Positions 22,901 to 28,900 of a stretch of DNA of 64,000 nt are shown piece after piece. The DNA is taken from assembly GCF_000027125.1 (NCBI RefSeq), contig NC_017626.1; one strand, 5' to 3'. This DNA comes from Escherichia coli 042. Its GTDB lineage: Bacteria > Pseudomonadota > Gammaproteobacteria > Enterobacterales > Enterobacteriaceae. Each line of letters starts with the position of its first letter. Position 1 is the first letter of the stretch. A program made the position numbers.

Positions 22901-25900
22901 AAGCCATTACGCTCATCTTCCGTCACCGGTCCCATCCGCGAACAAGGCGCAATCACCATCGCCCGTTCCACCACAGAAGGACTTCCTTTTGCATCGAGAA
23001 ACGAGATTAACGCCTCGCCGGTCCCCAGTTCCTGGATTGCCTTTTCCGTATCAAATGCAGGGGTGGGGCGCATGGTTTGCGCCGCAGCTTTTACCGCTTT
23101 CTGATCTTTGGGCGTAAAAGCACGCAAAGCGTGTTGAACGCGATTACCGAGCTGGCCGAGCACATTATCTGGAATATCAGACGGGTTTTGCGAAACGAAC
23201 CAGACGCCCACGCCTTTTGAGCGAATAAGCCTTATCACCTGCTCAATCTTATCCAGCAGTACCTGCGGGGCATCGTTAAATAGCAGATGTGCCTCGTCGA
23301 AGAAAAACACCAGTTTTGGTTTCTCCAGATCGCCCGCTTCCGGCAATTGTGCATACAACTCTGAAAGCATCCACAGCAGGCTGGCGGCGTACAGTTTCGG
23401 CATCTGATAAAGCTTCTCGGCGCTGAGGATATTGATAACGCCTTTACCGTTGGCATCGGTGCGCATCCAGTCTTTGATATCCAGCATCGGCTCACCAAAG
23501 AAGTGTGCTGCGCCTTGCTGTTCCAGCGACAACAGCCCGCGCTGGATGGCACCAACCGATGCGCTACTGATATTTCCGTACTGATTCTGGAAGGATTTGG
23601 CGTTATCGCCGATGTACTGGGTAATTGCCCGCAGATCTTTAAAGTCGAGCAGTAACAGCCCCTGATCGTCAGCAATGCGGAAAATGATATCCAGCACGCC
23701 AGATTGCACATCGTTGAGATTCAACAGTCGCGCCAGCAACAGCGGTCCCAGATCCGAAACCGTCGCCCGCACCGGATGGCCTTTCTCGCCAAAGATATCC
23801 CACACCACCACCGGATTGGCATGCGGTTGCCAATCATTGACGCCGATATTTTTAAGCCTTGCGAGCAGTTTTTCCGACGCCGTTCCTGCCTGCGCGATAC
23901 CGGTCAGATCGCCTTTCACATCAGCCATAAACACCGGCACGCCGATTTCCGACAATGACTCTGCCAGTTTTTGCAGCGTAACGGTTTTACCCGTCCCCGT
24001 TGCGCCGGTAATCAGCCCGTGACGGTTCGCCATTCCCGGCAGTAAAAACAGTTCTGTGTCCGGCGTGCGGGCAATTAACAGGGGTTCGCTCATGAGATTT
24101 CCTCCAGTTTCCTGCCTGGAGTATAGGCAACGGCTGCGCACTCTTCACCGCTAAATTCAGCAGATTGCGAGACGCCTTCCAAAGAGATTTAAGTGCCGGG
24201 CGACAGGCACCCGGCAAAGAGATCAGAAGTCAGCTTTCAGAACCACGCGGTAACGCGCCTTACCGTCGCGCACATGCTTGATGGCATCGTTAATTTTCGA
24301 CATCGGGAACAGTTCGGTGGTCGGCGCAACCTTGCTACGGGCGGCAAAGCGCATCAGCTTTCGCAGCTCATAAGGCGTGCCGGTAGCAGAACCAGAGATG
24401 CTGCGGTCGCCCGCAATTAACGTAAAGGCTGGAACAGACAGCGGCGTGAGAACCGCACCGACCGTATGGAAATTACCGCCATAGGTCAGCGCCTCAAAAT
24501 AAGGCGGCCAGTCGAGGCTGACGTTCACAGTATTGATAATGAGATCAAACTGCCCCGACAGGGCTTTCAGTGCCTGCGGATCGCGGCTATTCACCACTTT
24601 ATCGGCACCCATCGCCAGTACTTCCTGCTCTTTCTCCGGATTAGAACTAAAGGCCGTCACCTCGCATCCCATTGCGTGCAGAAGTTTTATAGCGATATGC
24701 CCCAGCCCGCCAATACCAATTACCCCAACGCGGCTGGTAGCAGTGATATGGTGCATCAACAGTGGTTTAAAGACCGTGATACCGCCGCACAACAGCGGCC
24801 CGGCGGACTCGATATCAATATTTTCTGGCAGTGGAATCACCCATTGCCAGTCCGCACGCAACTTCTCGGCAAAGCCACCGCGATTCATAATCGTCGGCAC
24901 AGCACCTTGCTCGCAGTTGATCTGATTACCGCTAATACAGGCGTCGCAGTGACCACAGCTACGCGCCGTCCAGCCAATCCCGACACGCTGACCGACCTGC
25001 AAACCTTTATCCTGCGCGGCGCTCCCGAGTGCCACCACGCGCCCAATCACTTCATGCCCGGCAACCAGCGGATATTGTGAAAATCCCCATTCGTTATCGA
25101 TCATCGACAGATCGGAATGGCAGATCCCGCAGTAATCCACCTGCACTTCAATATCTTGTGGCTTCAGCTCACCGGGATCGTACTCATAAACTTCCAGTTC
25201 GCCGCCCGCTTCTTTTGCGGCATAGCTTCTTATCATCGACATTTTTTGGTCCTTCTCTGGTGTTGTCTGGGAAGTGTAGAGCATGGCAGGGCGGGGTGCC
25301 TGGAGTGTGACAAAGGTTACACATCGCTGTATGCAATGCTGAAAATTTCAGCACTTAGCGAGATGCGAGCAAGCTGGCGCTTGCATGGTGGCGTGCGACA
25401 GGTATAATCCACAACGTTTTCCGCATACCTCTTCAGTGCCGAAGTGGCGAAATCGGTAGACGCAGTTGATTCAAAATCAACCGTAGAAATACGTGCCGGT
25501 TCGAGTCCGGCCTTCGGCACCATCGGAACATCAATAGACGTCAACGGACGTCTTTTTTTGTGCCTGAAATCCAGTATCCGCAAGGCTTTCCTCGATTTTC
25601 CTTTCAACAGAAGTCAATCTGAGTCAACCCACATCAAGTCGCTTGTGAGTATAGAACCGAGTATATATGCTGGTTCGATAATGGTTGTATACTCACAGCG
25701 GCACATGGAAGGAGAACTTTTATGGCTCTGACAGATATCAAAGTGCGTTCTGCAAAACCACAGGAAAAGGAGTATACCCTTGCCGATGGAGATGGCATGT
25801 TTTTGCTCATTCACCCTAACGGCTCAAAATACTGGCGGTTTCGCTTTCGCTTTGGTGGTAAGCAGCACCTGATGGCATTTGGGGTTTATCCTGAAACGTC

Positions 25901-28900
25901 ACTGGCTGATGCTCGTCAAAAAAGGGAAGAGGCCAGAAAACTTGTTGCTGCAGGCATCGATCCCCGTGAACACAAACGTGCAGTGAAAGAAGAGCAGACG
26001 AAAGAGGCTATTACCTTTGAGTCAGTTGCCAGAGAGTGGCACGCAGTAAATAAAAAATGGACAGAAGAACATAGCCGACGGGTGCTGAAGAGCCTGGAAG
26101 ATAATTTGTTCCCAGCAATTGGGAAGCGGAGTATTGATAGTTTTAGTACGCGCGATCTCCTTGTCCCTATCAAAGTAGTTGAGGCTACAGGGCGTCTTGA
26201 AGTGGCTTCGCGTCTTCAGCAGCGTACCAATGCGATTATGCGTTGTGCAGTGCAAAGCGGTTTGATCGATTACAATCCTGCTCAGGAGATGGCTGGGGCA
26301 GTTGCTTCAAGTAATCGTGTCCATCGACCAGCACTTGAACTGAAACGCTTACCTGAACTACTCCAGCGAATTGATAGCTACTCCGGACGACCTTTAACCC
26401 GTCTGGCTGTTGAGCTCACGTTATTAATCTTTATTCGTTCCAGTGAGTTGCGCTTTGCCCGTTGGCCAGAGATCGATTTTGAAAGGGCAATGTGGACAAT
26501 CCCGGCAGAACGAGAAGCTATTGAAGGAGTGAAGCATTCGGAACGTGGCTCGAAAATGCGTACTCCTCATTTAGTGCCGCTTTCTCGTCAGGCACTGGCA
26601 ATCCTTAAACAGGTTCATAAGCTTAGTGGCGAGCGCGATTTTGTTTTCGTTGGAGATCACAATCCTTGTAAACCGATGAGTGAAAATACAGTGAACAAGG
26701 CGCTGCGCGTGATGGGATATGACACTAAGATTGAGGTTTGCGGTCATGGCTTCAGGACCATGGCATGTAGCTCGTTGATTGAATCAGGGCTGTGGTCTAG
26801 GAACGCTGTTGAAAGGCAGATGAGCCATATGGAGCGTAACTCTGTACGTGCTGCTTACATTCATAAGGCTCAACACTTGGATGAGCGTAAAATGATGCTG
26901 CAGTGGTGGGCAGATTTTCTTGATGTAAATCGGGTGAAGGGCGTCAGCCCATTTGATTTTGCCAAGGAGAAATGAGCTATGGTAATGAGGTTATAGATAA
27001 GAGAGAATACTACTTTATCGCGGGTTTTTAGTGGCTGGCAGGTCTAGATGAGTAGAAAATTCAAGTAATCTACACTCACTCGACTTAAAGATGGGGCCTT
27101 TTAAAAGGTCCTGCTTTGATGCTTACTGGAATGATAACCGTCCTAATCGTTGGCGAGTTTGTTCCATAAGTCCTGAATCCATAGGTTTTCTCTCTCATTG
27201 ATATTAAGTAGCACCCATAAATTTTATTCAAGGATAAGAGATAATGGCAAATTTTTCGGTAGCTGCGAGAACATTAATTCATTTAGGGGCGGAACTGATT
27301 ACCTCAGATGAAGTTGCTATAAATGAACTTGTTAAGAATGCTTTTGATGCCGAATCTAAACGGGTTAGGATAAATGTATTCATACCTATTTCGCATTCGT
27401 TAATAGATGACTGCCTTGCAATACTCGACAATAGTAAAAAAGAGGAAGCTCTTCAAGATGATATTTTTCATATAAAGAAAATGTTAATTGAAAGTGTTTC
27501 TGAACCTTCTATTGCAGCCCAAGTAGAAGAGTTGTTGCTAAACTTAACTTCAGATTCTAGCAAGGATGAAGCAAAAAAAATAGTCGAGTCGATAAACTAT
27601 ATAACAATCGAAGATTCTGGTTGTGGAATGGATTTAGCGACACTTGAAACGGTATTTTTGGCAATAGGCACTCCCTCTAAAGTAAACTCTGAAAGTACAA
27701 AAGACTTAAATAGAAAAATCCTAGGCAATAAAGGTATTGGACGTTTAGCAATGATGAGACTTGGGGATATTGCCAACGTTACATCTTGGGTTGAACAAGG
27801 TAGTGCCCATGAAATTGAATTCGACTGGCGAATGTTTGACGATCCTGAAAAAATAATCACCGATATTGAATTTGAAATAAAACCGACCACTTGTCCAAGG
27901 CCAACACCTTCAGGGACTGTAATAAAGATAACAGCACTTAAAAGCTCTTGGACTGAAGAAAAAGTTCGCGAAAAGCTCGTGGGTGATTTTTTTAGAAGGT
28001 TACAAAACCCATTTGTGATGTCATTGGATGAAGGTAGCTCCGATAACACAAAAAAAAATAAAAAGAATAGAACTGTAGGCTTTCCAATAGATGTTCATAT
28101 TAATGGAGGAACTCGAATACCTATCGAAGGTATGAAGAAAGTGTTAACAGATTTAGTTCAGGCTGATATGGAGCTCTGGTTTGACCCAAACGGGATTGGT
28201 GATACACCTGAAGTTATTCTCCGTACGAGTTTGACTGACTACCAACGTGGAAATGAACCTGAAAATACTAATAGAACAATAGAAGAAGTAACACATGTTT
28301 TAAATGTTAATTTTGAAGCACTTAAGAAAATTGGCCCCGTAAGAGCTACTATTAGATGGTTTAATAGAGAACGGTTACGCCAGCAAGCTACTTTGCATGG
28401 TAACTGGAAAGCAGCGAAGGCCGAATTAGATTTATGGTGTGGAGGAATAGCAATATATCGAGATGGTTTTCGCATTGGATTTTCTGGACAATCAACCGGC
28501 GAAGACTGGCTGGGACTAGATAGTTCTGCTCTTAAGAGAGGAGGTTTTGCTGTAAACCGTATTCAGACTGTCGGTGCGTTAGAGATTTCAAGAAAAGAAA
28601 ATCCCGGTTTGGTTGATAGATCTAATAGAGAAGGATTGATTGAATCACCAGAATCCAATCTTGTAAGAGATATGCTGTCGAAATTTGCTATTGATGAACT
28701 TCGTCGCTACATCGGTCATGAAGGGCAAGAAGAGAAGAAAGCACGTCTAAATGATATAGTTGAAAGCGCTCCTGCAACTATACGCGCTCGGATACTGCAA
28801 GCTGAGCAAGGACTCACATCTATAAGGTCTAAGGTTCCCGCAGATGTTCAAGAATCAGTACAATCAATCGCAAATAATTTACACTTTATAAAAAATGAAG

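Follow-up and report, generated by a model that had tools for sequence, protein, structure and literature searches.

The leuX-proximal boundary of a mosaic island in Escherichia coli 042 and a candidate Ssp effector arm in its first cargo block

Gene order at the leuX locus

We analyzed a 64,000-nt stretch of the Escherichia coli 042 chromosome (contig NC_017626.1; hereafter the window), in which a long mosaic island starts directly behind the tRNA gene leuX. With a probability of roughly 0.9, the region represents the left-hand, tRNA-proximal end of the hypervariable island at leuX of E. coli, defence hotspot #37. Several complete genomes, CV839-06, ETEC1747 and NCTC9082 among them, were 100% identical to positions 22500–27100, and gene coordinates were taken from the RefSeq annotation of the 100%-identical CV839-06, complemented by ARAGORN and a list of open reading frames (ORFs).

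22591–24093, minus strand: yjgR, core gene for a HerA-like helicase C-terminal domain protein (CV839-06 RefSeq annotation, ORF list)
24094–24222, no strand: yjgR–ahr spacer of 129 bp, allele without the idn block (K-12 alignment, terminator scan)
24223–25242, minus strand: ahr (yjgB), for an NADPH-dependent aldehyde reductase; core gene that borders the leuX hotspot on the left (annotation; border as given in the literature)
25438–25522, plus strand: leuX, tRNA-Leu(CAA) (ARAGORN)
25523–25721, plus strand: element-side arm with the leuX terminator hairpin and the integrase leader (terminator scan, three-way alignment, far-end alignment)
25722–26975, plus strand: P4-like arm-type tyrosine integrase, 417 aa, intact (Pfam, annotation)
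27210–36741, no strand: low-GC (36–41%) cargo block of 9.5 kb (blastn, composition)
36742–64000, no strand: remainder of the island mosaic within the window (CV839-06 RefSeq annotation; 99.9% identity)

The coordinates given for yjgR, ahr, leuX and the integrase in the initial annotation of this DNA were all correct; yjgR ends at 24093 and the first base of ahr lies 130 bp further, the spacer itself measuring 129 bp.

The attachment site and its integrase

ARAGORN called a single tRNA in the window, tRNA-Leu(CAA), and identity to K-12 stops exactly at its CCA end (25522), as is expected if the crossover fell within the tRNA 3′ end. The leuX 3′ end (~25500–25522) is the attachment core (attL). 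Between tRNA and integrase, a terminator scan placed the leuX terminator hairpin (25536–25553) and its T-run, and a three-way alignment revealed the ~200 bp of this interval to be conserved in the leuZ island of Pectobacterium as well as at the far att site of CV839-06 described below. Because it is conserved at both of these places, the interval can be regarded as the element-side arm.

The integrase matched three Pfam models above their cut-offs (Arm-DNA-bind_3, 2e-29; Phage_int_M, 7e-27; Phage_integrase, 1e-19). It shares 74% identity with IntB of K-12, which is linked to leuX and belongs to KpLE2, and 71% with an island integrase that resides beside tRNA-Leu(UAA) in Pectobacterium atrosepticum. 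In the alignment it displays IRSSELR, HGFRT and AAYIH, which we take to be the motifs expected of the catalytic boxes of a tyrosine recombinase. The three domains and the CV839-06 annotation bear out the original call of a P4-type integrase immediately behind leuX as the start of a long mosaic island.

The 23-mer at the leuX 3′ end, TTCGAGTCCGGCCTTCGGCACCA, occurred once in the window with up to three mismatches allowed (shuffles expect 0.00), and in a k-mer scan of the window no piece of it outside leuX exceeded 12 bp. Both searches agree with the earlier observation that the window holds no second copy of the leuX 3′ end.

The far boundary in sister genomes

The window contains 38.5 kb of the island. 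Its continuation was followed in the nearest complete genomes, CV839-06, ETEC1731 and ETEC1747 (99.9–100% identical to the window), each of which matches positions 39001–64000 in one piece, at 99.9% and to the last base. Beyond the window, CV839-06 carries an IS3 copy, fecIRABCDE, insertion sequence (IS) debris, YfjI, a GTPase, Ag43 and a CP4-44-like block with antirestriction, RadC-like and YeeU/CbtA genes. A k-mer scan of this genome recovered the far att site as TTtGAGTCCGGCCTTCG(CACCTTCG)x3CACCA:

CV839-06 locus L004, 40613–40687 (record positions 1275612–1275686): degenerate far att site, ~39 kb past the window end

Relative to the leuX 3′ end, this repeat has one mismatch and a 24-bp expansion of the 8-bp unit CACCTTCG. 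Behind it lie ~100 bp that are ~80% identical to window positions 25523–25620. CV839-06 and ETEC1731 have the far site 77.3 kb from leuX; in ETEC1747 the distance is 80.1 kb, and in BEC1-S17-ESBL-09 it is 57.4 kb. The same far-att junction was also seen in hundreds of E. coli genomes.

These data confirm the initial estimate of an island exceeding 38 kb and reaching past position 64000, as in the nearest complete genomes it runs ~39 kb further. The outcome was right, but the reasoning, which started from a missing exact repeat, was lucky, since the real repeat is degenerate. The far site escapes a near-exact search because the 8-bp unit is expanded inside the repeat; the downstream search for an exact direct repeat that had been proposed would have missed it, the 23-mer (≤3 mismatches) being unmatched over the 96 kb downstream in CV839-06.

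The far site is a degenerate attR that has an attL-type arm on its chromosomal side, and from this adjacency it would follow that the present island integrated beside an older, related element. In CV839-06, the stump of this older element comprises a fragment of a phosphorothioate (PT)-DNA-binding restriction gene and an HNH endonuclease, with no integrase, and beyond it lie a truncated nanS, nanM, nanC and fimB. At positions 39226–40162 of the same locus (L004), a pseudogene fragment annotated as 'phosphorothioated DNA-binding restriction endonuclease' adjoins the intact 216-aa HNH endonuclease, for which PADLOC returns weak type IV restriction matches only. Loss of a PT-dependent nuclease alongside a PT-writing module, such as the one encoded in the cargo block, would make sense.

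Proposed assembly of the island

The assignment to the leuX hypervariable island draws on the gene identities, the junction, the allele frequencies given below, the integrase architecture and the far repeat of the sister genomes. Two points weigh against it: the far boundary is seen only in sister genomes rather than in the window's own sequence, and island length varies (57–80 kb) among carriers of the same cargo. The window itself contains the left core flank, ahr, and no direct repeat for the far boundary; nanS(truncated)–nanM–nanC–fimB is seen only in CV839-06, and the degenerate repeat copy lies 77–80 kb off in the sister genomes.

From this arrangement we infer an order of integration events, and an end of the 042 island at the same place as in its sisters. 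The P4-like arm-type tyrosine integrase would have recombined the attP of the element with the last ~23 bases of leuX, regenerating the tRNA (attL, 25500–25522) and leaving the integrase gene as the first gene of the island. Repeated integrations at the regenerated tRNA, together with IS-mediated insertions and deletions, would have built up a mosaic of ~77–80 kb. Its right end would consist of the degenerate leuX 3′-end repeat, followed by the integrase-less stump of the older tandem element and truncated nanS.

Behind the cargo block, positions 36742–64000 encompass an IS110 fragment, LacI and phosphotransferase system (PTS) genes, an epimerase–fucP–rbsK–DeoR cluster, ISEc23, a TetR gene split by IS100, DUF2254, a BCCT transporter, IS3 and lpxM–virK–capU–shf, and the mosaic continues past the window end. 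The TetR-family regulator gene (51503–54119) is interrupted by IS100 (IS21-family istA/istB, 52049–53850), with ISEc23 (IS66 family, ~47.0–50.8 kb) just upstream. The lpxM(msbB2)–virK–capU–shf cluster (59162–63038, minus strand) is a gene set typical of the virulence plasmids of Shigella, enteroaggregative and enterohaemorrhagic E. coli; here it is chromosomal and situated between IS3 copies, and virK contains an internal stop in the RefSeq annotation of an identical genome.

This content bears on whether the element might be a prophage or a phage satellite of the P4 type and not an accreted island with nothing but an integrase. The P4-like architecture of the integrase would fit such an origin, and P4-like satellites do occupy hotspot #37 in some strains. 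Yet no P4 replication, capsid-size or phage structural gene is annotated across the ~80-kb island; alpha primase, sid, delta, psu and epsilon were absent from its annotated features, a statement based on annotation only, with no dedicated profile search. Directly behind the integrase come instead genes for defence and sugar use, IS elements, fec and the CP4-44-like block, and most hotspot #37 occupants likewise lack a detectable mobile element beyond the integrase. A satellite or prophage is hence very improbable, and an integrase-anchored, accreted leuX island remains the preferred explanation.

Such an island is in keeping with what has been described for this site. In the literature, the DNA around leuX, with ahr and the nan operon as its borders, counts among the most diverse regions of E. 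coli. It constitutes hotspot #37 of a defence-island survey, hosting BREX, AbiEii and other systems, with 68% of cases lacking mobile-element genes beyond integrases (Hochhauser et al. 2023, PMC10121019). According to a recent review, no defence locus is more highly occupied, and the arm-type integrase that mobilises it sits at its left end (EcoSal review, 2025, PMC12707154); occupancy is put at 97% in the survey and the review (PMC10121019, PMC12707154). Consistent with leuX being a defence hotspot, in the slot directly behind a related leuX integrase, strain 2273-PO3 has a Dpd (7-deazaguanine) cluster (locus L017, 17010–28462) and strain AW1.7 a SIR2 gene and type I restriction–modification (R-M) remnants (locus L018, 16892–20744). 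In AW1.7, IS1 has deleted everything up to fimF.

Junction and island are, in sum, a correct re-identification of an already known structure. As such, the leuX finding matters little, involving the best-known E. coli island integration site and a common idonate-gene polymorphism; its use lies in annotation, namely of island boundaries, the degenerate attR and tandem accretion.

The yjgR–ahr junction without idn genes

In K-12 MG1655, yjgR and ahr are separated by idnR–idnT–idnO–idnD–idnK (5.1 kb). Aligned to the window, K-12 homology on the yjgR side ends near 24132 (query position 733) and resumes at the ahr stop codon, such that a 90-bp spacer (24133–24222) here stands against the 5.1-kb idnRTODK block there. 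A terminator scan located a terminator-like hairpin for ahr within the spacer (24191–24212, minus strand), and blastn of the idn block against the whole window found no idn sequence. The strain thus lacks the K-12 idn block, as had been claimed from the outset.

The idn block is present in K-12 at precisely this place, which would be compatible with a strain-specific deletion in 042 or an assembly error at yjgR–ahr, and the frequency of the junction in the population could not be known to the author of the initial annotation. We searched 5426 complete E. coli genomes with a 1.5-kb probe spanning yjgR–ahr. The junction was contiguous in 3212 of them (59%), O157:H7 strains included, and 2055 (38%) carried the idn block. 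With an identical contiguous junction in 3212 complete genomes, misassembly is refuted and so is a deletion peculiar to 042; in addition, the junction contains a 90-bp spacer of its own, including a terminator-like hairpin, and shows no scar inside idn genes. Deletion or assembly error accordingly retains next to no probability. The initial annotation had named idn genes elsewhere in the locus, or a misassembled junction, as grounds for abandoning its claim; the window holds no idn genes, and the junction is contiguous in the genomes counted above.

Of the two alleles found in E. coli, the one without idn is the more frequent, and K-12 represents the minority state. The absence of idn is hence real, but as it is the majority state (59% vs. 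38%) it does not distinguish strain 042. The junction is also unconnected with the island. Among the 2055 carriers, the idn block was at least 99% identical to that of K-12 (locus L002, 12740–17820) in 1973, a uniformity that may reflect recent spread via recombination.

An Ssp module and a kinase–receiver gene pair in the first cargo block

Downstream of the integrase, the cargo block encodes a histidine kinase (HK)-like and a response regulator (RR)-like protein, convergent with an sspDCB cluster:

27244–29628, plus strand: HK-like protein, 794 aa (Pfam, NCBIfam, orthologue motifs, PDB histidine kinases)
29625–31475, plus strand: RR-like protein, 616 aa, start overlapping the HK stop by 4 bp
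31624–32481, minus strand: sspD, PAPS-reductase-like (PADLOC SspD, 1.4e-140)
32456–35800, minus strand: sspC, ORC/Cdc6-type ATPase (PADLOC SspC, E=0, 1451 bits)
35781–36671, minus strand: sspB, DUF4007 (PADLOC SspB, 6.9e-115; Pfam DUF4007, 4.8e-90)

SspB, SspC and SspD, components of the Ssp DNA phosphorothioation system, gave full-length PADLOC matches in one cluster. The cluster contains no sspA; a housekeeping desulfurase, IscS, would supply sulfur to SspBCD, as it reportedly does in other strains. The HK-like and RR-like genes received no defence-system assignment, and neither of these two neighbours of sspBCD had a PADLOC match to SspE (DUF262–DUF1524) or to SspF, SspG or SspH. SspFGH was also considered as an identity for the pair and rejected, as the published description is of three genes with Walker A and FtsK-like features.

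The HK-like protein combines an N-terminal paraMORC-type GHKL ATPase, a HEF_HK-like DHp domain (H585-E586) and a C-terminal HATPase_c. Two Pfam models, HATPase_c_3 (1.4e-15) and HATPase_c (4.5e-18), scored above cut-off and HEF_HK below (1.3e-3; 19.6 bits vs. 24.1). In NCBIfam, the N-terminal domain matched BbrUII/HgiDII restriction enzymes, and the protein also matched PDB histidine kinases. Across seven orthologues there is no variation in the GHKL motifs, in H585-E586 or in the N, G1 and G2 boxes of the kinase. The protein has no sensor or transmembrane domain.

The RR-like protein consists of a CheY-like receiver, a helical linker and a C-terminal region modelled with a MazF/Kid/CcdB-like fold. 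In the receiver, which matched Pfam Response_reg_2 weakly and below cut-off, D21-D23, D144 and K208 are invariant in 35 homologues. The predicted structure of the C-terminal part contains the MazF-like fold with its characteristic SH3-like barrel; the model of the truncated protein reached a pLDDT of 70.7. At the sequence level, the C-terminal parts of 12 members yielded noise only against Pfam at E≤10, with neither PemK_toxin nor CcdB, a PDB sequence search returned no match, and hhalign against a verified MazF/Kid alignment covered 17 columns at a non-significant E of 0.29.

Conservation of the pair was assessed among RR-like homologues with enough flanking DNA, that is, the window and ten loci outside E. 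coli (Pectobacterium, two Pseudomonas species, P. fluorescens, Dokdonella, Pseudoxanthomonas and four metagenome contigs), whose RR-like proteins are 30–77% identical to that of the window. These loci stem from contigs encoding homologues; a profile scan of genome contigs with the RR-like alignment gave four loci. In all 11 loci the HK/RR pair adjoins SspB–SspC–SspD, often together with SspA, in at least three gene orders. Between E. coli and Pectobacterium atrosepticum, blastn aligned the 9.5-kb block as one unit at 76% DNA identity. The block was found in nine of the 5426 complete E. coli genomes, always at leuX; culture-collection strain NCTC9082 has the same locus. No attR-like repeat for the 9.5-kb integrase–HK–RR–Ssp unit followed sspB in the window or in the Pectobacterium locus, so that a discrete 11-kb islet could not be shown.

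Some of these neighbourhoods contain further PT-related genes. In Pseudomonas xantholysinigenes, the kinase gene is immediately preceded by a ScoMcrA-like SRA-domain gene (locus L008, 6303–7430), and in Dokdonella (locus L010, 11894–13162) and one metagenome contig (locus L022, 11887–13152) the receiver gene is immediately followed by a DndB-family gene and a small ORF.

A possible effector arm of SspBCD

According to a 2025 field review, the known restriction branches of PT systems are DndFGH/SspFGH, SspE and PbeABCD only, and the HK/RR pair falls outside these recognized partners. A literature search found no paper linking SspBCD with a histidine kinase, DUF4007 with GHKL, or Ssp with MORC; a V. 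cholerae paper that mentions paraMORC concerns Shedu, not the HK-like family. For the cargo, we favour a functional coupling of the HK/RR pair to SspBCD as its effector arm, a tentative reading to which we give slightly less than even odds. That the first cargo constitutes an unrecognized fourth kind of PT-coupled defence, with a His–Asp phosphorelay gating a toxin, is possible, if somewhat doubtful.

If so, we infer a mechanism in which SspBCD and the housekeeping desulfurase would mark host DNA, while the MORC-type ATPase of the HK-like protein would clamp or scan DNA and respond to its modification state. His585 would then autophosphorylate and pass the phosphate to Asp144 of the receiver, and the phosphorylated receiver would release the MazF/CcdB-like domain, resulting in RNA cleavage or gyrase poisoning. 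The released toxin domain would arrest the infection by stopping phage or host growth. We give this detailed chain of events less credence than the coupling to Ssp as such.

Several observations count against these proposals. The Pfam HEF_HK and Response_reg_2 scores fall below cut-off, a MazF signal is missing at the sequence level (Pfam at E≤10; hhalign E 0.29), and the pLDDT of the truncated RR-like model is only 70.7. Moreover, the 11/11 count is inflated by shared descent, because all loci are from gammaproteobacterial or metagenomic relatives.

Alternatively, the pair could be an ordinary regulatory two-component system, e.g. for ssp transcription, or an independent defence system travelling with SspBCD. 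Clustering of defence genes does not require functional coupling, some PT systems have regulators of the DndB type (2025 field review), and the C-terminal domain of the RR-like protein could be a nucleic-acid-binding module. However, this protein has no Pfam domain beyond the receiver, and fold searches point to no DNA-binding output fold. The HK-like protein, for its part, lacks a sensor or transmembrane domain and instead bears a MORC-type DNA-clamp ATPase shared with BbrUII/HgiDII, and the adjacency of HK/RR and Ssp survives rearrangement of gene order. We consider the regulatory or independent alternative the main rival, conceivable but rather unlikely.

We regard the cargo as a candidate new Ssp effector arm. 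If true, this would introduce a new effector logic for PT-based immunity, phosphorelay-gated toxin activation by a MORC-type DNA sensor, and assign a function to a widespread 'two-component-like' family known in silico. The idea is directly testable, since NCTC9082, an available culture-collection strain, has the locus.

A small variable site in the core region

Outside the island, a patch of 33% GC between the ornithine carbamoyltransferase gene and tabA contains a 503-aa ORF (9760–11271, plus strand). The sole match of this ORF was a sub-threshold hit to a SopA-like central domain, with none in PADLOC. The same slot is filled by other genes in 2273-PO3 and AW1.7 (loci L017 and L018), which marks it as a small variable site.

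Comparison with known systems

The window shares the flanking genes yjgR and ahr with the GntII/idn (L-idonate) locus of K-12. Homology breaks off sharply on both sides: one breakpoint precedes the yjgR start codon by ~39 bp, and the other coincides with the ahr stop codon. The window differs in that the block is missing, as in ~60% of E. coli, and replaced by the 90-bp spacer.

The HK/RR pair most closely recalls the HEF_HK/Response_reg_2 'two-component-system-like' pairs, which have been described in silico only and were tied to type II R-M, C5 methylases and Vsr, with phosphorothioation never mentioned (Bellieny-Rabelo et al. 2021, PMC8011034). Both consist of a receiver protein of ~600 aa next to a soluble HK-like protein, which carries HATPase_c_3 at its N terminus and HATPase_c at its C terminus, and both are linked to a DNA-modification module. 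Here, however, the signature domains HEF_HK and Response_reg_2 score below their gathering cut-offs and the partner is SspBCD: the neighbours in 11 of 11 loci are SspBCD(A) instead of type II R-M, C5 methylase or Vsr genes. From the MazF, Kid (PemK) and CcdB toxins, the C-terminal part of the RR-like protein is set apart by its lack of sequence-family membership and by its fusion to a receiver in place of pairing with an antitoxin, its toxin activity being putative.

SspABCD–SspE and SspABCD–SspFGH resemble the cargo in SspB, SspC and SspD. In place of SspE or SspFGH, the window encodes the two-gene pair of a paraMORC-HK and a receiver-MazF-like protein.

The island as a whole shares with hotspot #37, K-12 KpLE2 with its IntB and PAI II of strain 536 the anchor at the leuX 3′ end, with ahr to the left and nan/fim to the right. 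As in KpLE2 and hotspot #37 at large, an arm-type P4-like integrase (74% identical to IntB) is the first gene, and as elsewhere in the hotspot, defence cargo precedes a mosaic made up of metabolic genes, fec and IS elements. For PT systems, the available part of the hotspot #37 review table lists Dnd and has no Ssp entry (PMC12707154). The present island stands out from other hotspot #37 occupants by a rare cargo combination (9/5426 complete genomes) and by a right-hand repeat that is degenerate, its 8-bp unit expanded three times.

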